Virus record (IMG/VR): IMGVR_UViG_2778261666_000010
DNA from: a virus
Lineage: Duplodnaviria; Heunggongvirae; Uroviricota; Caudoviricetes
Direction: 5' to 3' (one strand)
DNA: 24,201 nucleotides
The position numbers and the translations under genes are program-made. Within the stretch, counting starts at the first letter, position 1, and each line of letters begins with the position of its first letter. Positions 4,253-18,335 of the stretch are shown piece after piece. The notes under the pieces are model-generated. The model saw only the letters and a list, made by a program, of their open reading frames with translations, made no database searches and was not told the origin of the DNA.

Positions 4253-4703
4253 CCCACGTCACATCCTGGAATACATGCGACCAGTCGCCTTCGGAAGATG
4301 GCAGGCGGGGTTTTGGCTCCGGCAGGTGTTCTGCCTGCGGCGTGCCCTGACTGCTGCGCGTGATGCGAACGCGTTCCCGCAGAGGGAGCGTAAACAGGAG
4401 ATCGGCGCTGTCATCGTCATTGATAACGGCGGAGAATTTGATGTCCTGATTACGCTCCGGATTGAGCAACAACTGTGGCTGATTTTCTGATAACCACGCC
4501 AGTAGCGGCAGCGTGAGGTCGTCCAGCTCCCCGGCGTAATCCATGACAAACATCACCATCTGATAGCGGTAAACAAACGAGGGCGTTTCTCCGGTCGTTT
4601 CAATGTTGCCGCTCTCCACGAAAATGGTGAATTTTTCCGGGTTGGCCTGACACCATCGGCATGAACGGGTCATGGCTTCACGCAGGGAATCAGTTTTCAG
4701 CAT
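4236..4703 (-). CDS. R: Tail completion protein (P2 gpR-like)
   Basis: 155 aa, the length I recall for P2 R; ATG at 4703; directly downstream of the lysis genes. Confidence 0.75.
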   Translation of the reverse strand: MLKTDSLREAMTRSCRWCQANPEKFTIFVESGNIETTGETPSFVYRYQMVMFVMDYAGELDDLTLPLLAWLSENQPQLLLNPERNQDIKFSAVINDDDSADLLFTLPLRERVRITRSSQGTPQAEHLPEPKPRLPSSEGDWSHVFQDVTWGESDG

Positions 4704-5010
4704 GGTTGTTGTCCTCGTTGTTCAGTCGTTGCAGCTTGCGCTGTTCCAGTAATTCAATGGCCCGTTTATCCGCGTTACAGGTTTCCAGTGCATCCAGAAG
4801 GCGGTCGCCCCATATACCGAGATTTCCCCATGTGGGAGTATCAGGGAAGGGGGGAGGCATTACCGGTATGGTCAGCGTCTGCGGTATAAGCCGGACTGAC
4901 GGCGCTGGCCGTGGCGCGTTCTGCGTGCCTGCGCAACCTGTCAGTAAAACGAGCGTCAGGCAAAGCGTGGGCGCATTCATCTTTTGCAATATCGTTGCGT
5001 AGCTGTTCAC
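4690..5010 (-). CDS. Outer-membrane spanin (o-spanin, Rz1/LysC-like lipoprotein), overlapping the i-spanin in another frame
   Basis: Signal peptide with lipobox LLTGC followed by a proline-rich region. GTG start at 5010 has GGAGAGG upstream; an ATG at 4980 is an alternative. Overlaps the i-spanin 3' end by ~170 nt. Confidence 0.7.
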   Translation of the reverse strand: MNSYATILQKMNAPTLCLTLVLLTGCAGTQNAPRPAPSVRLIPQTLTIPVMPPPFPDTPTWGNLGIWGDRLLDALETCNADKRAIELLEQRKLQRLNNEDNNHAEN

Positions 5011-5248
5011 GTCTGGCCTCTCCGTCCTGATTGCGTTGCTGATTTTCCGCGCGGAGTTGTGCCAGCACCTGCTGCATATCCTGTACCCCGGCGCTGATGA
5101 TATTCAGGGTGTCGACGGTACTTTTCAGGGTGCTGGCCTGCGCTTCGTTTCTGGCGTTCTCCCGGCCCAGTGACCACGACAGACGCATGGATGCTCCCCA
5201 GGCGGCAATCAGAAGAAAAGCGACGCCCAGCGTGGGCCAGAGCTTCAT
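4841..5248 (-). CDS. Inner-membrane spanin (i-spanin, Rz/LysB-like)
   Basis: Start moved to ATG 5248 (MKLWPTLGVAFLLIAAWGA...), which overlaps the endolysin stop (ATGA). N-terminal transmembrane helix then a charged coiled-coil region. The track's extra 48 N-terminal residues overlap the endolysin. Confidence 0.7.
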   Translation of the reverse strand: MKLWPTLGVAFLLIAAWGASMRLSWSLGRENARNEAQASTLKSTVDTLNIISAGVQDMQQVLAQLRAENQQRNQDGEARREQLRNDIAKDECAHALPDARFTDRLRRHAERATASAVSPAYTADADHTGNASPLP

Positions 5249-5637
5249 GCCGGATAAACACCGTGCGGTAACTGAAAATGCGGTCCGTCTTTCAGGGTCT
5301 TCCAGTCGCCGCCCCATTCCACCGGAATATTCAGTTCCCGGCTGGCCTGTCTGAATGCTGCTGCGATTTTTTCGTACAGCGGCCATTCCCATGACACCTG
5401 GCTGCCGATATAAGCCACAACATCCACGGCATGTCCCGTAAGGTGGCGGCTGTTCATGGTCTGGCTCTTACCTGTGGCCACAAGTTGCTTCTGGCGGTAA
5501 CGGCTGCGCAATCCTTCGGTGATACCAAAATCCACTTCCGAGATTTCCAGTGCCCGTCGGGTCACTTTCACCAGATCAGGATTTACGCCCTGCAAATTCT
5601 TTTCGCTCCGGCTGCTGAATTTAAATGTGTTGCTCAT
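5245..5637 (-). CDS. Endolysin, peptidase M15 family (L-alanyl-D-glutamate peptidase type)
   Basis: 130 aa with a zinc-peptidase signature (SRHLTGHAVDV ... DGPHFQL) resembling T5-type M15 endolysins. ATG 5637 overlaps the holin stop. Not a P2 K-type lysozyme. Confidence 0.75.
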   Translation of the reverse strand: MSNTFKFSSRSEKNLQGVNPDLVKVTRRALEISEVDFGITEGLRSRYRQKQLVATGKSQTMNSRHLTGHAVDVVAYIGSQVSWEWPLYEKIAAAFRQASRELNIPVEWGGDWKTLKDGPHFQLPHGVYPA

Positions 5638-5957
5638 TCGTCCTTCTCCTTCACCCTGCGATTAAAGGCCGCAATAACCTTGTCGCGTGCTTTCTCTGCC
5701 CCCATAAAACCGATTGATGCGCCGATAAACGTCACGGCATCTTCAGGAAAACCGAAGAAGCGCAACGACCCGGCCACGGCCATGGCAAGAACGCCGCACG
5801 CCAGCGATCCCGTTACGGTCTGAACCAGTGTTCGTCCGTCATAAAGACTCATCAGCGCGGAAATGCTGACCGCCGCGCCTACTGCATACACCGTTGGCAG
5901 GTGGTCAAAGAGCCACGCAATAACCTGCTCTGTGATCCCTGTTTGAATGGTGCTCAC
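5634..5957 (-). CDS. Putative holin
   Basis: About 107 aa with three hydrophobic segments and a charged C-terminus, located between X and the endolysin like P2 Y. The track ORF has no internal ATG; I call a GTG at 5957 with a GGGGGAG motif 5 nt upstream, just after the gpX stop. Confidence 0.6.
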   Translation of the reverse strand: MSTIQTGITEQVIAWLFDHLPTVYAVGAAVSISALMSLYDGRTLVQTVTGSLACGVLAMAVAGSLRFFGFPEDAVTFIGASIGFMGAEKARDKVIAAFNRRVKEKDE

Positions 5958-5959
5958 TG

Positions 5960-6160
5960 CTACTCCCCCCACAACTGAATCATTTCTCGTTTCTTCTTCT
6001 CCGGCTCCGGCATCTCCACTTCCTGCCCGGCGTCCAGAAATACCTGCTGACAGAGTCCGGGGTTGGCATCCAGCACCTTTTCGGTGACGCCCTGCGTCGT
6101 GCCGTAGTACCGGAAACAGAGCGAATCCACGGTGTCGCCTTCCAGTGCCTTCACTTTCAT
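5960..6160 (-). CDS. X: Tail protein X (P2 gpX-like, LysM-like)
   Basis: Start moved to ATG 6160 (MKVKALEGDTVDSLCFRYYG...), giving 66 aa, close to P2 X. Overlaps the gpL stop (ATGA). Confidence 0.7.
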   Translation of the reverse strand: MKVKALEGDTVDSLCFRYYGTTQGVTEKVLDANPGLCQQVFLDAGQEVEMPEPEKKKREMIQLWGE

Positions 6161-6654
6161 CAGCACAACTCCGCAAAGATTCGCGGGCGGCACAGAATGT
6201 CAGAGATGGCCCAGCTCACATCGCGCCACAAATCCGATGTCTGTATATCCAGTGCGTCCGCCCGGCGGTCGCCCTTGTCCGTTGTGTCCGCATCGCGGTA
6301 ACGCTCCAGAATCAGGGCGCGTGTGGCGGTATAAACAGCATTGCGCCAGTGCCAGAGATTGACGCTTTCTCCGTTAATTACGGGTGCCGGAACATCGGCC
6401 AGCGTCTGATGGCCAGCCGCCTGCTGTTCCTGCTGCCATGCTTCCAGCTCGCGGGTAACGTGTGCCACGGCCCCGGTGGCGGTATGCAGCAGGCGGGAGG
6501 TGGTCACACGGCCCGGCAGTCGTACCGCCAGACGCAGCTCGCGCAGCACAATATCCGGCCAGAATGCACCTGCTGAAATGCGAGTGTCGCCATCATCGGT
6601 ATCGGTGATGTCGTCCTCTGCGGGTCTTGGTTCAGTTCTGGCAACCATACTCAT
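6160..6654 (-). CDS. L: Head completion/stabilisation protein (P2 gpL-like)
   Basis: Position after M as in P2. Track start 6663 is GTG only 1 nt from the SD; ATG 6654 has AGGAG at good spacing. C-terminal ...WRDVSWA... resembles P2 L. Confidence 0.8.
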   Translation of the reverse strand: MSMVARTEPRPAEDDITDTDDGDTRISAGAFWPDIVLRELRLAVRLPGRVTTSRLLHTATGAVAHVTRELEAWQQEQQAAGHQTLADVPAPVINGESVNLWHWRNAVYTATRALILERYRDADTTDKGDRRADALDIQTSDLWRDVSWAISDILCRPRIFAELC

Positions 6655-6756
6655 GGGGTTCACTCCTGAAAAAAATCGGGCGGTGGGTGCGCGGTGTAAA
6701 CGGTCACGGAGTCAAACCGGAACACCGCGCACGCCGCCCGCTGACGGGGTCAGTCG

Positions 6757-7557
6757 TTAACCGCGCTTCGCCTTCTGCGTCGCGGTGGTTTTTCGTGTTG
6801 CAGGCTTCCGCGTTGTCTTTTTACTTTTGCTGCTTTCGTCCTGCGCCTGCTGTGCGCTGGCGTCTTCTGGTGCGGCTGCGGAATCGGCTTTTTTCAGGGC
6901 GCGGGAAAGGGTTGCAATCTCGCGTTTCACACCTGCGTTCGGGTTCAGGTGCATCGCTTCGCGCAGCAGCTTCAGTGATGAGGCCATGCTGTCCGCATCG
7001 CTCAGGCCACGGCGGGCAAAGGCGCACGCCTTGCATAATTTGGCGCGCACTTCGTCCGGCATATCCTGGTTGGCGACAATTTCCCAAAGTGTGTCCAGTG
7101 GTTCGATAAAGGCGGACAAATCCGCGTCGGCATCCGTCCCGGCCTGCGTCAGTACCGGGTTGCAGATTTCTTCGGTCAGTACCGTGACAGCAGTACGGCC
7201 AAAGTTATCCGGCATGATGAGGTTGTGACGGACCACATACGCACCAATACGCAATGCCAGCGGAAGATCGCCGCAGTCAATCGCCCACACCATCAGCGTG
7301 GCAATCACTTCATCCTGCTGCCCGCCGTCAGCCTCCAGCGTTCCTTCAATCCAGCCGGAAAAGTCCGGCAACAACTCTTTTTTGATGGCGGCTTTCGCGC
7401 TTCTGGCCTGTACGCCCTTAAGCCGGGCCTGTGCCAGACGCAGACGATACAGCACCTCTTCATGCGCGGTACGCGCGGCGTGGTCCACGCCTTCATTCGC
7501 CCGGCCTGCGCGCTGTGCCATCACGTTCTGCCAGTGTTGCTGTGCAGGAGTAATCAT
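6757..7557 (-). CDS. M: Terminase small (endonuclease) subunit (P2 gpM-like)
   Basis: 266 aa with ...MPDEVRAKL... and a basic K/R-rich C-terminal tail as in P2 M; ATG 7557 with GGAGAG upstream. Confidence 0.8.
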   Translation of the reverse strand: MITPAQQHWQNVMAQRAGRANEGVDHAARTAHEEVLYRLRLAQARLKGVQARSAKAAIKKELLPDFSGWIEGTLEADGGQQDEVIATLMVWAIDCGDLPLALRIGAYVVRHNLIMPDNFGRTAVTVLTEEICNPVLTQAGTDADADLSAFIEPLDTLWEIVANQDMPDEVRAKLCKACAFARRGLSDADSMASSLKLLREAMHLNPNAGVKREIATLSRALKKADSAAAPEDASAQQAQDESSKSKKTTRKPATRKTTATQKAKRG

Positions 7558-7574
7558 TTGTTCTCTCCGTTACA

Positions 7575-7593
7575 GGCGGGCATGATGCCCGCC
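7575..7593 (-). other. Perfect 19-nt palindromic hairpin between capsid gene N and terminase gene M
   Basis: GGCGGGCATGATGCCCGCC, just after the N stop (7603-7605). No U-tract follows on the minus strand, so it looks like a stability/attenuation element, not a strong terminator. Confidence 0.4.
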
Positions 7594-7602
7594 GTGAGTT
7601 GA

Positions 7603-8655
7603 TTAGCTGTCGGCGAACTTCAGGCCAGTGACCATCGCGCACTTGCCATAGTCTTCAACGACATAAGCGTCATTGATGGACTGGTAGGTGGCGATGCGGT
7701 TGTATTCCGGCTCGTCTTTCATCAGGCGACGCATTGTTCCTTTCTGCCAGTAAATTGACAGGTTGTTGAACGAGGTGATAAGCATCGTTGAATCCGGGAA
7801 GAACGGCGCAAGGAATACATCCAGCCCGCCAATGGCGCGCGATGACAGGATGAGCTGTCCGGCAAGTAATTCCGCATTGGGATTCTGGCCGCTGATGCTG
7901 TTCAGCACGGGCAGACGCAGCGAGTTAAACAGGTTGCGCCCCATAATCACCACGAGGTCGTCAGCTTCCTTGTGCCATTCATCCAGCAGGGATGAGCGCG
8001 CGTCCTGTACCAGAGCATCAGCGTTCGCATACTTACCCGCGTGCGCCACGGTGTTGTCCATGTTGCGGGAGGTCAGCGTCACGTCATTCATTACGCGCTC
8101 GCTGGCGTCGGTTCTGATGTGCTCCAGCCATCCCACGTTAACGTCCTGAAGCAGCTTGTTAGTGCTGAAGTTGGACTCATCTGCGTGAGACGTGCCGTTG
8201 AAACCGATCATGATGCGGTCAAGCGCCACCTGCCGGGCAATCTGTGTGCTGACGCGGGACTGAAAATCAGGGTGTGCCGCCCAGGCATCAAGCTGCGGAT
8301 ACGAAATAAACGTGTCGTAGTTCACCTGTTCGCACTGATATTTGCGGTTTTTCAGATCAACCACGTTATTCGGGTTACGGCGTTTTGTGCCGTCATAACT
8401 GGTATTCGTGCGCGCAATCGGCCCGGTGGTGTCCAGGAGGATTTTTTCGCCTTTCTGGTCGGTCACACCGAACACGTTAATTTTTTTTGTAAATTCGGTG
8501 CTTTCCTTTACTGCGTTTTCAAAACGCTGCTGCACCGAGGGTTCCACGGTAAATCGCGATACCAGTGCAGATACCGGGATGTTGTTAAGCGACGCCTGCT
8601 GCGCCATATAGCAACCCAGCTTGTTGCGGGTAATATCTGACATCACCAGATTCAT
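7603..8655 (-). CDS. N: Major capsid protein (P2 gpN-like)
   Basis: 350 aa; shares ...FTVEPSV... and the overall pattern of P2 N from memory; ATG 8655 with AAGGAG upstream. Confidence 0.9.
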   Translation of the reverse strand: MNLVMSDITRNKLGCYMAQQASLNNIPVSALVSRFTVEPSVQQRFENAVKESTEFTKKINVFGVTDQKGEKILLDTTGPIARTNTSYDGTKRRNPNNVVDLKNRKYQCEQVNYDTFISYPQLDAWAAHPDFQSRVSTQIARQVALDRIMIGFNGTSHADESNFSTNKLLQDVNVGWLEHIRTDASERVMNDVTLTSRNMDNTVAHAGKYANADALVQDARSSLLDEWHKEADDLVVIMGRNLFNSLRLPVLNSISGQNPNAELLAGQLILSSRAIGGLDVFLAPFFPDSTMLITSFNNLSIYWQKGTMRRLMKDEPEYNRIATYQSINDAYVVEDYGKCAMVTGLKFADS

Positions 8656-11421: not shown

Positions 11422-12467
11422 TGAGCAGAAAAAACAAAAAAGTGCGCATGAGTTCACGCATTGATCTCGCTGATGCGCTCAGGAAAGAATCATCGCTCAG
11501 TGCATTCACATTTGATGGTCCTTATCGCCTGACCGGGCATGACCTGCTGGACAATATGTACTGTGCTGATAACGGGCGGTGGTATGAAACCCCGGTGGAC
11601 TGGTACGGTCTGGCAAGAGCAGCCCGGCAAACGTCCTGGCATCAGTCTGCGCTTTACTTTAAGCGTAATGTATTGCTCGGTTGCTATATTCCGCACCCGC
11701 TGCTTTCCCGGCAGGATTTCTCGGCGCTGGCGCTGGACTGGTTTGTGTTCGGTAACGCATTCCTTGAGCTTCGAAGCAATATGCTCGGCGAACCACTTAA
11801 ATTACGGCACACCCTGGCGAAATACATGCGACGCGGAAGCGATCTTGAATCATGGTGGTATGTGCAGGATGGCAAGGACGCGTTTCAGTTTCGCCCTGGC
11901 AAAGTGTGCCACCTGATGAATCCTGACATTAACCAGGAAATCTACGGCATGCCGGAATATCTCGGCGCATTACTCTCGGCCAGCCTGTCTCATTCGGCGG
12001 ACATGTTCAGAAAACTGTATTACGACAACGGCTCCCACGCCGGGTGCATCATCTACATCGGTGCAGCGCAGGTAAACCGCGAAAGCATGGACTCCCTGAA
12101 GGAAACGCTACAGGGTGCGCGTGGTGGTGGTGCATTTAAAAACGTGCTCATTCATGCGCCCAACGGGGGCAAAGAGGGGGTGCAAATTTTGCCGTTCCAG
12201 CAGATCACCGCAAAGGATGAGTTCATGAATGTTAAGGCGGCATCCCGTGATGATGTGCTGGCTGCGCACCGCGTTCCGCCGCAACTGATGGGGGCGATGC
12301 CGGGCGAAAAAAGTGCGTTTGGCGATGTGGAGAAGGCAGCGCGGGTTTACGCAATTAACGAGCTGATGCCCGTCATGGAGGCTATGAAGCACATCAATGA
12401 CTGGCTTGGCGAAGAGGTGATCCGTTTTAACTCTTATGCTCTTCTTGATGAAAAAACAGCCCCGTGA
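11421..12467 (+). CDS. Q: Portal protein (P2 gpQ-like)
   Basis: 348 aa, close to the 344 aa I recall for P2 Q; immediately downstream of the terminase, as in P2. Confidence 0.9.
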   Translation: MSRKNKKVRMSSRIDLADALRKESSLSAFTFDGPYRLTGHDLLDNMYCADNGRWYETPVDWYGLARAARQTSWHQSALYFKRNVLLGCYIPHPLLSRQDFSALALDWFVFGNAFLELRSNMLGEPLKLRHTLAKYMRRGSDLESWWYVQDGKDAFQFRPGKVCHLMNPDINQEIYGMPEYLGALLSASLSHSADMFRKLYYDNGSHAGCIIYIGAAQVNRESMDSLKETLQGARGGGAFKNVLIHAPNGGKEGVQILPFQQITAKDEFMNVKAASRDDVLAAHRVPPQLMGAMPGEKSAFGDVEKAARVYAINELMPVMEAMKHINDWLGEEVIRFNSYALLDEKTAP

Positions 12468-12483
12468 TGGGGCTGTCCTTTTT
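12456..12483. terminator. Bidirectional intrinsic terminator shared by convergent portal (plus) and orf174a (minus)
   Basis: 8-bp stem ACAGCCCC/GGGGCTGT (12456-12463 / 12469-12476) with loop GTGAT. Followed by a T-run on the plus strand (CCTTTTTA) and preceded by an A-run, giving a U-tract on the minus strand too. The portal stop lies in the loop; the orf174a stop lies in the T-run. Confidence 0.65.
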
Positions 12484-13532: not shown

Positions 13533-13572
13533 GCAGGGCGATGCGCGATTATCGCCTTGGTTTGAGAGGAAA

Positions 13573-14097
13573 TCAGGTGTTCTTTTTACCTTCTGTCAGT
13601 GGGCATAACCATCCACTATTTACATCACTTAGCTGATGCGTTCTTTCCTCGTGCTTCTCCTGCCACAATGCTTTTCCGCCAGCCTTTATGATGGCTCTTT
13701 CAACATCCCGCTCGTATCGCAAGGGCTGAAATACGTTATTAATGAAATATTCGCTTATGTCCGGAAGCAATACTGCAAAATTATTGGTTTGTTGCGCCGT
13801 TCGGCTATGCAGCAAAGCGGCATACTTTAATGCGTCCTGTGCTTTCTGGAATTTCAGTGCATGGTCAGTGGCGATTTTTTCCAGTTCAGCGATCCTGTTG
13901 TCTTTGGTTTCCAGCTCTTCCAGCAGCTCGGCGATAATGTCCATTTCCTGATGACGGATTTGACGCTTAAACGCCGCCACTGCTTCGCTACAATCCTGCT
14001 CAGCATTTGGGTTATCCGTGATGGCCTCATACCACGCCAGCGTCGATTGATAGTTTTGTGCTGCCTCACGTAATGCCTGATAGTTGATTTCGCTCAT
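13573..14097 (-). CDS. Hypothetical protein (174 aa), predicted alpha-helical/coiled-coil, downstream of parR
   Basis: ATG 14097 with AAGGAG upstream; a hairpin (14135-14152, CAGGGCGAACTCGCCCTG) separates it from parR; no recognisable motif. Confidence 0.6.
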   Translation of the reverse strand: MSEINYQALREAAQNYQSTLAWYEAITDNPNAEQDCSEAVAAFKRQIRHQEMDIIAELLEELETKDNRIAELEKIATDHALKFQKAQDALKYAALLHSRTAQQTNNFAVLLPDISEYFINNVFQPLRYERDVERAIIKAGGKALWQEKHEERTHQLSDVNSGWLCPLTEGKKNT

Positions 14098-14160
14098 TAT
14101 GTCGTTCTCCTTGTTTATGTTCTGAGGTGGAGAGCAGGGCGAACTCGCCCTGATGTTGTG

Positions 14161-14472
14161 TTATTCAGGAAATAACGCCCTGATATTTCTGGCCATCTGA
14201 CTGGTTATCTGTGCGGTTGGTACTGGCTGTGACTCGGGGCGTTCTGTCCTGGTTTGTGTCACTGATAACGTCTCATCGTCAGCCCATGCAGCCAGTCGGT
14301 AAGCCTCTGCCGGATTCATTTTCAGAAGTGCCAGCCCGGCCAGAAAAGCCACGCGTTGGCCGCTTTTGCGAGCTTCTGGTGTAAGGCTGTCCAGCCAGGC
14401 GCATGCTTCACCTTCGTTCTTGACGGCGGCGGGTTTCAGATAGAAACTTATCCGTCTGGTTGGTGTCGTCAT
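14161..14472 (-). CDS. parR: ParR-like centromere-binding adaptor (partition protein)
   Basis: Start moved to ATG 14472 (MTTPTRRISFYLKPAAVKNEGEACAWLDSLTPEARKSGQRVAFLAGLALLKMNP...), with AAGGAG upstream and overlapping the parM stop. Resembles the N-terminal ribbon-helix-helix region of plasmid R1 ParR (...RTIAFKLNPD...LDSIP...RAALTAGLALY...) from memory. The track's 45-residue N-terminal extension overlaps parM. Confidence 0.65.
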   Translation of the reverse strand: MTTPTRRISFYLKPAAVKNEGEACAWLDSLTPEARKSGQRVAFLAGLALLKMNPAEAYRLAAWADDETLSVTQTRTERPESQPVPTAQITSQMARNIRALFPE

Positions 14473-14476
14473 TGGT

Positions 14477-15436
14477 TTACTCCTTGTCCATTGCGTACAG
14501 CCCATTAACCAGAGCAAACTGTGGCACCCCGTCCGCGATGAAAGTCGCATTAACTCCGCAGGCTTCGCGGATAGCGGGTGCCACAATCTCCGCCCCGCCA
14601 CCGACAACCATCACCCGCCCGTAACCCGAAAAACCCGCCAGCGCGCGGATCACGCGTTGTTTCAGTGTTTCTTCCTTTTCACGAATAACCGCCATCAGGC
14701 TGGCGTAATGCGCGTCATTGTGGATGTGCTGGCGCAGCCAGGCTTCATCATGGCGATGTTCGATAATGGTATTGGCGATGTGGTGACTGGTACGCATACC
14801 GTTAGTGGCCATCACCGACAGTACGGCATCGGCCATCAGGGAAACGCCTACGTGTGGATCGCAAAACACCTGGCTGATACCTGCCAGTTGTCCCTGAACC
14901 TTTGCCACATCCAGCGTGGTTCCGCCCAAATCCACAATCAGCAGGGATTCAAACGGACTCATGTCAGCCAGTGCCTTAAAGCCAGCCGGAATGGATTCAG
15001 GCATAACCCGTACATTACGGATAGTGAATGCCTTACCGTTCTGGTACTCCACCGGGCGCATGACGTTCGCTTTTTTGCGGTTGATGTTGGCCATGTCCGG
15101 CTGTGCGTTTGTGTCGAAATACTCGCTCAGTGGCAGGGTGACAACCACATCCACTTCCTGTGGTGTGATGCCTGATTTGACCAGCGCGTGATGAATGGCA
15201 ATTACATTCACATCGCTGTACTGGTATTGCGTGTCGGTCGTCTGGACAAAGCGATCGCTGACCGGATCAAAACCATAGCGCACGCCATCAAGCATGTAGT
15301 TCGCGGGCTGCATGCCACCGAACGGCGCAGACCATTCCGATTTGAAGCTGTTCGGGCTGATGGCGTTGCGGCGTTCGCCGTTCTCAGTCCATGCCAGCTT
15401 GATGTTGGTGGAGCCGTCGTCGATACAAATTTTCAT
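14477..15436 (-). CDS. parM: ParM/StbA-like actin-type segregation ATPase
   Basis: 319 aa, collinear with plasmid R1 ParM as I recall it (MKICIDDGSTNIKLAW..ISPNSFK..YSDVNV..HHAL..RKKAN..VMPESIPAG..DLGGTTLD..GVSL..GGGAEIV..LVNG), including phosphate-1, phosphate-2 and adenosine motifs of the actin fold. Confidence 0.85.
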   Translation of the reverse strand: MKICIDDGSTNIKLAWTENGERRNAISPNSFKSEWSAPFGGMQPANYMLDGVRYGFDPVSDRFVQTTDTQYQYSDVNVIAIHHALVKSGITPQEVDVVVTLPLSEYFDTNAQPDMANINRKKANVMRPVEYQNGKAFTIRNVRVMPESIPAGFKALADMSPFESLLIVDLGGTTLDVAKVQGQLAGISQVFCDPHVGVSLMADAVLSVMATNGMRTSHHIANTIIEHRHDEAWLRQHIHNDAHYASLMAVIREKEETLKQRVIRALAGFSGYGRVMVVGGGAEIVAPAIREACGVNATFIADGVPQFALVNGLYAMDKE

Positions 15437-15468
15437 GTCGATTTTCCTTATATTGATTAATTAATCGG

Positions 15469-15580
15469 TTACGGGATTTTTAAATCCCGCTTTTGCCTGT
15501 TTTGTGCGCGCTTCATATTTCGCGGCGCTTTTTTTGCTCATTTACGGGATTTGTGAATCCCGTTTCTGTCTGTTTTTTGT
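15469..15580. repeat. Two ~38-bp direct repeats, each with an internal hairpin and T-rich tail, straddling the gene A stop and the parM upstream region
   Basis: Copy A 15469-15506 (TTACGGGATTTTTAAATCCCGCTTTTGCCTGTTTTGTG) and copy B 15542-15580 (TTACGGGATTTGTGAATCCCGTTTCTGTCTGTTTTTTGT); copy B lies inside the last ~23 codons of gene A. Confidence 0.6.
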
Positions 15581-18335
15581 TCCCACGGGTCAGGCCACCC
15601 CGCAGCAGGTCTGCTTTGCGGTGGGCGCGTTCAGTGGTTTCACTGATTCTCTGTGCGTGCTCTGCGTCACGGATGGCGCGCAGCATGTCAGAAAGCACGG
15701 TAACGGGTGTCTTCATGGTGTTCTGGTCTTGCTGAAGTGTGGATGCCAGGCGTGCGGCGGCTTCGGGGTCTGATGCCCCTAGCTGTTCCAGATAGCTGGC
15801 GACCGGGTTATGGCGGATCTCCGTGCTGCTTACGCCGTGATTACGGCTCAGGCGCTGCCAGAGCTGCGTGATTCGGCTGTCCGGTCGGGTATCTGGTTTG
15901 CGTACAATTTCAAATCCCTGCGGTGCAATGATGCTGCCGTCAACGTACAGACTGCCGCCCCGTAACAGGTGCAGCATCTGTTGTTCACCGATATGCAGGC
16001 CGAGAGATTCGGCAGACTCCCGCCATTCTTTAGCGAGTAACTCGTGGTTATCAGGCAAAGGTCGCGGCTGTTTGCGGCTCTGTGTCCAGTTCTGCATTTC
16101 ATCGCTGCTGTTTTTTGCCTGTTTGTCACGAAGCGAACGCATCAGCGCCCGGCGTTCGTGCCGTTTCAGTGAGCGCATCCATTCATTTACTTCAACGCCG
16201 TCAGGAAGCTGCGGCCACGGTGCTGGCCGTTCTTCCGGCTGTTCTGTTCCGTTGTTGTTCGTTTCCTGTACACGGGGACAGTTATTGCCACGAGTCCAAG
16301 GGGCGGCAGGGCCGCCCTGAAGGTCAAAACCATTTTCGCGGGCGCTGTCTTCCGCTTCCGGTTTACGCCTTACCAGCTTCCAGTTATCCGGGTGCGTGCA
16401 CACGCGGGAAGACTCCCCGATGAGCGGCGACCAGATCCCGTAAATCTGTACACTCTGCTCGCCGTAATCGTTCAGTTCATCTGCGAGGTCGTAGGCGGTG
16501 CGAATCAGGTAGTCTTTACGTGGAACAAGTACGCCGCCCTGTTTTTCAATGTAGGAGGCAAAACACCCGGCATCGGCGGCAGCGAGTACCGCATCCATTG
16601 CGTCATCCTTCAGCCGTTGCGGGCCTTCCGGGTTGCGTGCCATCTGGCTGGCAAGGCGGCGCAGTTCACGCCACACCTGACGGGAGGGGATGCCAAAGAA
16701 CTGGAACTGGCGGACCCGATGAAGGCGCGCCCAGCCGATGGCGCGCTCCACGCTCTCGGCCATTGATTTTCCGGTTTCGTGGTCAACGCGTGGTTTGCCC
16801 GTTTTCGGGTCGATTCCATCCACGGCGCGGCTGTCCAGGTTTTTTCCGATGTAGGTGGCGATGTAGCTGGTTGGCGTGCCTTTGGAGCCGTCGACGTACT
16901 CCACCTTAAAGCGCGGAGTAATATCATTGCCCAGCTCGTGGCGGTCTTCCTGAATGGCAATATCGCGGGTGATGGCCACGATGCTGTCGATTTCTTCTGG
17001 ATGAGCAAAGACCATCATATGCCAGTGCACGGTGCCGTCATGGTGAGGCTCCACCGTGCGGATGCCATACCAGCGCAGGCCGTCGCGGTTCAGTTTCTTG
17101 CGGACCGCCGCAAAAAACGTGTTAACCAGGTAATCGCTGGAGTCGCGCATGGTGGCCCCGTTCCATTTGGGATTCGGATGACCGTTCTCTGTTGTGGCGT
17201 GGTATTTTGACGGGCAGGTGACAGTCAGAAACACCGCTTTGTCGCCACGGGCTTCGGCTAGAAGTTCCAGCCCCTTCATGGTGGCCATCATTTCTGCCTT
17301 ACGGTGAACCGGGTTACTTACTCCCGCGTAATACACTGTCTCAAGATCAATCGTGAAGCCGTCTTCGTTTTCCAGTTCGAAGCTCTTCAGGAAGTCGCGG
17401 GTTTTCTCGCGCTGTGCGCGAAACTCGCTTAACGCGTCCTGGCTCAGATAGGGTGATGTTTTTCTGGAAACCAGACAGGCGGCACGGAGCTGTTCTTCCC
17501 GCCACTCGCAACGTAAAAGCCACAGTTTGTGTTTCCACCATTCCGCACAGGTCAGGCGAAGGATGGCACCCGGCAGCAGCTCCGTATTCAGTGCGTTCTT
17601 CCGGTCTTTGTCCGTTCTCAGTGCTTCGTAATGCGGCGGCATGGTGTGCAGATGTAACGCCATGCGGGCCAGCATCTGATACGCCTTCAGCGCAATTTTC
17701 ATGGTCAGCTCGCCATCGGTCGCGCCAAAGTTATCGCAGAGTGTTTCGAAAGTGCTGCTGAACATCGCCGCCGTCATGGTGGCCAGCGTCTGTATCTGGT
17801 GTTTGTTGAGCTGCGGCAGGTAAAGCAAATCGTCCAGGCGTTCGCGTCCGGCAAGGGAGCAATAACACGGTGTCAGCCAGCGTCCGTCAGTGCGATCCAG
17901 ACGTTCGAATATTTTGCGCAGGGTTCCGCGTGCATAGCGTTCCGCCTGCCAGCTCTTTTTGCCTTTCCGGCGATCGGCTTCCTGTTTTTTGCGCAGGAAG
18001 GAGAGGTGGCGAATAAGCGGATCGCGCAGATAGGACGGCAGCAGGCGGAGCGAGGCCATGGCTTCATCCACCGCGCCGCGTGCCTGTTTTCTGGCGTCTC
18101 CTGTCAGTGTGATGGTTTTGTCCTGTTTTTCCTGTGCGTCCAGGCTTTTATTAATCAGGTTGCCCAGCGGCGTGGCGGAGAACGCCGCATCAGCCATTTC
18201 CTGGCGGCGCTCGTTCTCTGCCCGGTAGGCATCCAGCCAGGAGGAAAGCGCGGATTCAGGAGCGGGGATCCCCGTTCCTTCACGCCCCACTGCGTGGCGC
18301 GGTTGTTGCCAGTCCCTGATGTACTCTGCCGTCAT
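15513..18335 (-). CDS. A: Replication initiation endonuclease (P2 gpA-like, rolling-circle HUH family)
   Basis: 940 aa, ATG 18335; metal-binding motif EPHHDGTVHWHMMVF and downstream tyrosine region (...TSYIATYIGKN...). Longer than the ~761 aa I recall for P2 A. Confidence 0.85.
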   Translation of the reverse strand: MTAEYIRDWQQPRHAVGREGTGIPAPESALSSWLDAYRAENERRQEMADAAFSATPLGNLINKSLDAQEKQDKTITLTGDARKQARGAVDEAMASLRLLPSYLRDPLIRHLSFLRKKQEADRRKGKKSWQAERYARGTLRKIFERLDRTDGRWLTPCYCSLAGRERLDDLLYLPQLNKHQIQTLATMTAAMFSSTFETLCDNFGATDGELTMKIALKAYQMLARMALHLHTMPPHYEALRTDKDRKNALNTELLPGAILRLTCAEWWKHKLWLLRCEWREEQLRAACLVSRKTSPYLSQDALSEFRAQREKTRDFLKSFELENEDGFTIDLETVYYAGVSNPVHRKAEMMATMKGLELLAEARGDKAVFLTVTCPSKYHATTENGHPNPKWNGATMRDSSDYLVNTFFAAVRKKLNRDGLRWYGIRTVEPHHDGTVHWHMMVFAHPEEIDSIVAITRDIAIQEDRHELGNDITPRFKVEYVDGSKGTPTSYIATYIGKNLDSRAVDGIDPKTGKPRVDHETGKSMAESVERAIGWARLHRVRQFQFFGIPSRQVWRELRRLASQMARNPEGPQRLKDDAMDAVLAAADAGCFASYIEKQGGVLVPRKDYLIRTAYDLADELNDYGEQSVQIYGIWSPLIGESSRVCTHPDNWKLVRRKPEAEDSARENGFDLQGGPAAPWTRGNNCPRVQETNNNGTEQPEERPAPWPQLPDGVEVNEWMRSLKRHERRALMRSLRDKQAKNSSDEMQNWTQSRKQPRPLPDNHELLAKEWRESAESLGLHIGEQQMLHLLRGGSLYVDGSIIAPQGFEIVRKPDTRPDSRITQLWQRLSRNHGVSSTEIRHNPVASYLEQLGASDPEAAARLASTLQQDQNTMKTPVTVLSDMLRAIRDAEHAQRISETTERAHRKADLLRGGLTRGNKKQTETGFTNPVNEQKKRREI

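Follow-up and report, generated by a model that had tools for sequence, protein, structure and literature searches.

Two palindromic repeat units form a putative parC-type centromere at the head of the parM-parR cassette of P88-like prophages

Introduction

Why does a P2-like phage that integrates into the chromosome of its host retain, under purifying selection, an actin-type machine for DNA segregation? The question is raised by the P88-like prophages (Xuanwuvirus, P2-like), one of which makes up the stretch of DNA analysed here (IMG/VR record IMGVR_UViG_2778261666_000010; 24,201 nucleotides, referred to in full as the window) and shares 95-98% identity with phage P88 and related phages. Of 5426 complete E. 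coli genomes, 1376, or about a quarter, harbour a prophage of this type whose ParM-ParR pair is intact, and it sits in the chromosome at 1545 of 1547 places. No record examined has any feature annotated in the gap between parM and the preceding replication gene gpA, and a literature search for P88 or Xuanwuvirus together with ParM or parC found no study of the locus; the cis site of a prophage type this common is thus neither annotated nor described in the literature searched.

Where such sites have been characterized, parC consists of direct repeats just 5' of parM (PMC9426499, PMC2241845), with ten 11-bp iterons in R1, 20-bp repeats in pSK41 and four 17-bp repeats in pCW3 (PMC9426499, PMC2241845). 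In the R1 site, a 39-bp centre is flanked on each side by a block of five 11-bp iterons, all within 159 bp of strongly curved DNA (PMC2241845). For pB171 ParR, two 10-bp repeats suffice, and direct repeats are the reported target of every ParR studied so far (PMC9426499). A sequence-only reading of the window had drawn attention to a duplicated, hairpin-forming element upstream of parM and had offered two interpretations, a candidate parC centromere or the scar left by insertion of the par module. Here, we ask which of these, or which other function, best accounts for the repeats.

Results

On the minus strand of the window, gpA (15513-18335), which encodes a replication endonuclease of 940 residues (PF05840, E 3e-129), is followed by parM (14477-15436), encoding an actin-like segregation ATPase of 319 residues (StbA_N, E 5.6e-82; ParM C-terminal domain, E 1.3e-68), and by parR (14161-14472), whose 103-residue product is predicted to be a centromere-binding adaptor of the ParR/StbB family (PF10784, E 1.3e-24). 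ParM is about 50% identical to plasmid ParMs. For ParR, a PDB search with the single sequence found no match and an AlphaFold2 monomer model was of low confidence (pLDDT 58); its family profile matched PDB entry 2jd3_A, deposited as STBB PROTEIN, with E 2e-12, and by this profile similarity ParR is a member of the family of the solved pB171 ParR/StbB. The locus thus has the composition of a type II partition system, with a ParM ATPase, a small ParR directly 3' of parM and repeated DNA directly 5' of parM. Instead of a short direct-iteron array, the repeated DNA holds only two long direct units with inverted half-sites and no tandem array. A P2-type replication origin (nick site) probably lies inside gpA at 16275-16316 on the same strand, where the annotated ori of phage fiAA91-ss maps to the invariant motif GGPAAPWTRGNNCP; the DNA at this position, GCCGCCCCTTGGACTCGTGGCAATAACTGT, which encodes that motif, resembles the P2 ori core. 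Among the records of this phage type we also came across a 34,461-bp circular one, deposited as E. coli plasmid pZ1323PEC0009-2 (NZ_CP148288.1), which comprises a whole P88-like phage genome (integrase, cox, gpA, parM, parR and structural genes); it may be either a stable episome or an assembled excised circle.

The repeats themselves were recovered with a repeat finder in the window as a direct repeat of a 38-nt unit in two copies, which are 84% identical and start 73 bp apart: unit A, the downstream copy, at 15469-15506, and unit B, the upstream copy, at 15542-15579. Read on the minus strand, each consists of an A-rich lead followed by a palindrome, in unit B ACAAAAAACAGACAGAAA and CGGGATTCACAAATCCCG (15545-15562), and in unit A (G)CACAAAACAGGCAAAAG and CGGGATTTAAAAATCCCG (15472-15489), the corresponding inverted repeats being CGGGATTTGTGAATCCCG for the upstream and CGGGATTTTTAAATCCCG for the downstream copy. 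The palindromes share a 7-4-7 build, CGGGATT-N4-AATCCCG, one per unit. When up to two mismatches were allowed, this pattern was found at two places in the 24.2 kb, both of them the units, where 0.07 were expected, and none of 100 shuffled sequences contained two or more matches; of the eight CGGGATT heptamers in the window, four fall here, within 92 bp. The pair of near-identical units of about 38 bp, 73 bp apart and each with an inverted repeat, that the sequence-only reading had described is therefore borne out by the repeat finder and by the pattern scan against shuffles.

Its placement of the two copies, one in the gap of 76 bp before parM (15437-15512) and one in the 3' end of gpA, proved correct as well. 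Unit A is non-coding and lies 33 bp 5' of the parM start codon, separated from it by a leader (15437-15468, minus strand) in which a Shine-Dalgarno sequence, AAGGA, can be read at 15445-15449. Unit B overlaps the final codons of gpA and encodes roughly ...NKKQTETGFTNPV, after which nine codons remain before the stop. The spacer between the units (15507-15541, minus strand) holds the gpA stop codon (15513-15515) and measures 35 bp, a length that is fixed although its sequence is poorly conserved. It also contains a weak, poorly maintained GC-rich inverted repeat, which we considered as a third hairpin element and rejected, its pairs being broken in many haplotypes and its sequence 50% conserved. 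No further repeat array or tandem repeat was found in or beside the par cassette. Over the unit region, AA dinucleotides recur with a period of about 10.6 bp, a signal within the top 0.3% of the window (p ~0.009 against shuffles). The half-sites inside each palindrome have their centres 11 bp apart, and the 73 bp between the palindromes correspond to about seven helical turns.

A consensus scan of both strands for sigma-70-like promoters between 14000 and 16500 found none, and by eye only poor matches were seen; parMR is probably read through from gpA, and may have a weak or non-canonical promoter. On the plus strand at 12456-12476, a terminator-like hairpin with a 9-bp stem (six GC pairs) followed by CCTTTTT overlaps the end of the portal gene and marks the end of the converging late operon. 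We also noted an open reading frame of 26 codons, MSKKSAAKYEARTKQAKAGFKNPVTD*, on the minus strand at 15461-15541, which spans the spacer and unit A in a codon register equal to that of gpA in unit B. Hafnia and 89 of 95 haplotypes keep this frame open, but we rejected it as a gene, since a Shine-Dalgarno sequence and a third-position bias (9/13/13) are both lacking and one haplotype interrupts it with an in-frame stop; the frame is probably open only because the strand is poor in T.

The question of whether the repeats belong to gpA or to parMR could be addressed by comparing loci in which the two have been separated. In E. coli SWHEFF_58 (L251), a block of 1,418 bp is 90.8% identical to window positions 15578-14161; its ends are the first bases of unit B and the stop codon of parR, with unrelated sequence on both flanks. 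Its upstream flank carries a different, shorter gpA of 768 residues and an extra ORF. Both palindromes are nevertheless present, 73 bp apart, and unit B remains only as a 69-bp "pseudogene" fragment. Loci without parMR were obtained through partial matches in E. coli genomes: SA31-1 and AHB29 (L252 and L253; NZ_CP076276.1 and NZ_OZ547246.1) have a P88-type gpA that is 94% identical up to window position 15599 and then continues into a different tail, ...DKGNSEKKK*, which ends earlier than that of the window gpA. Neither palindrome is present in these two loci. The sequence-only reading had suggested looking for the same duplication in relatives that lack parMR, and its absence from these two favours a parC. 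Within the phage collection, no GpA outside the P88 group shares residues 800-940.

By these alignments, the repeats belong to the par module and not to gpA. The module can be delimited as a putative parC-parM-parR cassette at window positions 15578-14161, with its left edge at unit B (15578) and its right edge at the parR stop (14161), and the last ~22 gpA codons in the window are read-through into it. In SA31-1 and AHB29, the ead/Ea22-like gene and the par cassette are both missing from the locus at 4692-8062 (equivalent to window 13533-15598), and an AAA-family ATPase and an S8-family peptidase stand in their place; the site 3' of gpA is a hot spot for the exchange of cargo. Just past the parR stop, where the cassette ends on the right, there is a GC-rich hairpin, CAGGGCGAACTCGCCCTG (14135-14152), and a 12-nt direct repeat, CGCCCTGAT(G/A)TT, straddles this stop codon with copies at 14146-14157 and 14176-14187.

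For the variation of the units over short distances, we assembled ninety-odd distinct junction haplotypes from IMG/VR and from genomes; the IMG/VR scan with the GpA C-terminus yielded only relatives of at least 95% identity and informs on micro-variation, not on deep conservation. Among these haplotypes, the palindrome arms are conserved while the loops vary freely, and the 73-bp spacing of the units is kept in 197 of 206 loci. Polymorphism within the E. coli population is only moderately lower in the units than in their neighbours. Single-arm variants are common in both units, CGGGACT in unit B (24 of 94 haplotypes) and AATCCTG in unit A (21 of 94). The two favour opposite strands, and compensatory double changes in the palindrome arms were found in none of the haplotypes; as far as the sequences tell, haplotype covariation gives no support for a single-strand RNA structure. 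A collapse to a single unit occurs in only one contig (L180; IMGVR_UViG_2657245439_000011), in which a hybrid B/A unit upstream of parM represents a natural one-unit variant; the 73 bp that it lacks are what recombination of one repeat with the other would be expected to remove. A search of plasmids with a 164-bp region returned only copies of the same prophage.

Over the greater distance that separates E. coli from Hafnia, identity is 79% in unit B and 90% in unit A, compared with 50% in the spacer and 56-57% in the gpA sequence upstream; the leader is 72% and parM 88% identical, and the ParR of the Hafnia lineage 73%. The units are again spaced by exactly 73 bp in Hafnia, although gpA ends in another reading frame there, its TGA stop lying inside the loop of the unit B palindrome and unit B being read in a different frame. 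That unit B was kept despite this change of frame indicates that the constraint acts on nucleotides and not on protein. Orthologous units of E. coli and Hafnia are moreover more alike than the two units of one genome, indicating that the duplication is old, that it predates the split of the two lineages and that both copies have been kept since. The A-rich leads of 19 nt are likewise conserved in sequence, with their non-A bases (CAGGCA) included. On the protein side, overall identity among the clades of P88-like ParR falls to 53-56%, the divergence being C-terminal, and the N-terminal strand PTRRISFYLKPA and the helix QRxAFLAGLAL are essentially the same in all of them; this constancy of the ParR N-terminus fits with one palindrome sequence serving all clades.

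More distant cassettes were sought in a scan of genome contigs, which gave nine loci, the useful one being that of Serratia (L095). The Serratia-type parMR is diverged (ParM 58%, ParR 38% identical), and its cassette has different elements 5' of parM that combine an A-run with a GC palindrome; a 13-mer, GGCAAAAACGGGA, is common to unit A and the Serratia-type region upstream of parM. In this region (L095, 5311-5475; also L104-L106), an inverted repeat of about 20 nt, GGGAACGAAATAGAAAAA ... TTTTTCTATTTC, surrounds a small GC hairpin 5' of parM, whose stem varies in sequence by lineage with its pairing kept (GCCG/CGGC versus AGCC/GGCT). L095 and L104 additionally contain two copies of a direct repeat, ATTTCATGACC, and a perfect palindrome, GCCGTTTAAACGGC, which is degenerate in L105 and L106.

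Discussion

The two 38-bp units probably constitute a parC-type centromere of unusual build that heads a discrete, mobile parC-parM-parR cassette. The proposal of a candidate parC has thus gained ground as a putative assignment, in that the repeats travel together with parMR, are missing from loci without it, and are conserved at the nucleotide level with a fixed spacing. What counts against it is that the architecture differs from that of every characterized parC, that no promoter was found, that the units are only moderately less polymorphic in E. coli than the sequence around them, that the carrier is normally chromosomal, that single-arm variants are common, and that the opposite strand presents a hairpin followed by a T-run.

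The last of these points leads to explanations in which the units act through transcription or its product. On the plus strand, each unit had been said to look like an intrinsic terminator at a place where no plus-strand gene ends; indeed, both copies were picked up by a terminator-like scan, and no plus-strand unit ends there. As terminators, they would keep antisense or read-through late transcription out of gpA and the origin. Stem and T-run are present in both, with hairpins of -10 to -11 kcal/mol, the Serratia-type palindromes likewise have T-runs on this strand, and the CGGGACT variant of unit B retains a G-U pair on it. We nevertheless regard this function as decidedly unlikely: upstream of the units there is neither a plus-strand gene nor a promoter-like site, the converging late operon has a strong terminator of its own 3 kb away (12456-12476), the AATCCTG variant of unit A creates an A-C mismatch beside the stem base, the stems are short and the T-tracts interrupted (CTTTTGCC, TTCTGTCTG), and terminators have no need of a fixed 73-bp spacing. 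On the sense strand, the units might instead be stem-loops in a 5' untranslated region that protect or process the parMR part of the early-operon mRNA or tune the translation of parM, and such a role would itself be a reason for them to travel with the cassette. Both fold on this strand with about -11 kcal/mol (z-scores -2.3 and -3.4), AATCCTG in unit A here keeps a G-U pair, and since parMR apparently lacks its own promoter and is probably read from gpA, processing of the mRNA is plausible. Against this stand the C-A mismatch that CGGGACT places in the middle of the sense hairpin of unit B in 24 of 94 haplotypes, with no compensatory double changes seen, the exact 73-bp spacing across a spacer that has diverged by 50%, which independent hairpins do not need, and the conserved 19-nt A-rich leads with their CAGGCA, which a stem-loop leaves unexplained. 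Rfam contained no family matching the units, and on balance we think an RNA element unlikely.

Other explanations leave the units as DNA elements and take them away from ParR. The nucleotide conservation, the 11-bp distance of the half-sites and the helical phasing speak for protein binding in general and not for ParR specifically, so that the units could be sites for a host nucleoid protein or another phage regulator, linked to the cassette by chance. This is improbable, however, because they are transferred with parM and parR in a block that holds no other gene and in which ParR is the sole predicted DNA-binding protein, because they are lost together with parMR, and because they persist behind two unrelated types of gpA, contrary to what a gpA-related site would do. 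The same loci bear on an origin function. HUH-type initiators often use hairpins, and the units sit at the 3' end of gpA, where they might be part of a rolling-circle origin or its termination signal recognised by the gpA protein; yet the P2-type ori has its place some 750 bp away, at gpA residues ~674-687 (window 16275-16316), par-less phages with the same gpA do without the hairpins, and in SWHEFF_58 the hairpins stand behind a different gpA, which makes this idea extremely unlikely. As for the insertion scar, the module does end on the left at the edge of unit B, the gpA-embedded copy, at 15578, and the breakpoints of two independent variants (15578 and 15599) lie within ~20 bp of each other; to this extent the sequence-only reading was right about the boundary. 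The duplication itself does not behave as a neutral and now functionless remnant. The transferred block includes both copies, with parMR to one side of them, selection has kept them 79% and 90% conserved while the spacer decayed to 50% and the adjoining gpA to 56-57%, the duplication is older than the split of E. coli and Hafnia, and a collapse to one unit is seen only in L180. We consider a scar very unlikely.

Returning to the centromere, we envisage that ParR dimers, through a ribbon-helix-helix fold, would recognise four ACGGGATT half-sites. The half-sites would form two inverted pairs, with centres 11 bp apart within a pair and the pairs 73 bp apart; as this distance is close to seven helical turns, the two palindromes would come to lie on the same face of the DNA. 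ParR would probably also spread over the helically phased A-tracts of the ~144-bp region, and the resulting ParR-DNA complex would cap ParM filaments, which would then drive copies of the phage genome away from each other. Through the junction with the cassette, gpA came to read ~22 codons into the upstream unit, an overlap that we regard as incidental.

A close point of comparison for such a site is the parC of R1. Both lie directly 5' of parM-parR and consist of two repeat blocks around a centre of 35-39 bp, the cis region measuring about 150 bp (159 bp in R1, ~144 bp in the phage); in both, the DNA is A-rich and helically phased, with the same kind of AA-periodicity signal in R1-type parC as in the phage region, and a CCC/GGG core is present in every box. 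Their ParR proteins are homologues (PF10784) with similar N-terminal strands, RRTIAFKL in R1 and RRISFYL in the phage, although overall identity between phage and R1-type proteins is only ~28% for ParR and ~47% for ParM. The differences lie in the architecture: R1 has ten 11-bp direct iterons, whereas the phage has two 38-bp units, each with a 7-4-7 palindrome, giving four inverted half-sites, and its upstream unit overlaps a coding region. Furthermore, the R1 centre holds a ParR-repressed promoter; in the phage, no promoter was found and the spacer, the corresponding position, is not conserved, so that a role of the site as autoregulatory operator is unsupported.

Other partition systems can also be set beside the phage units. 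In parC1 of pB171, the plasmid of the ParR/StbB structure (PDB 2JD3), repeat length, sequence and internal symmetry are all different from those of the phage units. The phage-plasmid D6 and IncI/IncF plasmids have the same gene order, each with a short repeat family of its own directly 5' of parM (TCTCAAAT-type in D6, T-rich in an IncI plasmid), the motifs being unrelated to the phage units; these are autonomous replicons, whereas the P88-like element, a P2-like prophage, inserts itself into the host chromosome. Ribbon-helix-helix proteins such as ParG, acting on parH of TP228, and omega of pSM19035 work on short boxes in direct or inverted orientation. By analogy, a protein of this fold could plausibly target inverted half-sites that are 11 bp apart, even though the ParG and omega systems rely on ParA-type ATPases (type Ib) and their proteins are unrelated in sequence to ParR.

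The defined cassette at 15578-14161, with two palindromic units, parM and parR, provides a minimal construct for experiments. If ParR binds the four inverted half-sites, the range of type II centromere architectures would be wider than is apparent from the characterized sites, and a very small centromere would become available for synthetic segregation systems; if it does not, the strong conservation of the units and their constant spacing would suggest that the cassette head serves some other function in cis. As to why an integrating phage should need such a site, one could imagine that P88-like phages persist or segregate as low-copy circular episomes by means of the palindromic parC and ParMR, for instance after infection, in a carrier state or upon excision. 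We hold this to be rather unlikely, but if it were true, a very common and supposedly integrating P2-like prophage would be a facultative phage-plasmid, and its parC the first type II centromere for which a build of inverted half-sites, in place of direct iterons, had been shown.

One minor observation concerns a genome record titled Vagococcus sp. WN89Y (NZ_JBQPOM010000071.1, L092), which contains a prophage on a 226-kb contig. Vagococcus is a Gram-positive genus, and the prophage is 95% identical to the E. coli phage in the C-terminal region of gpA and 97.5% identical in ParM; this case is probably one of assembly contamination or mislabelling.
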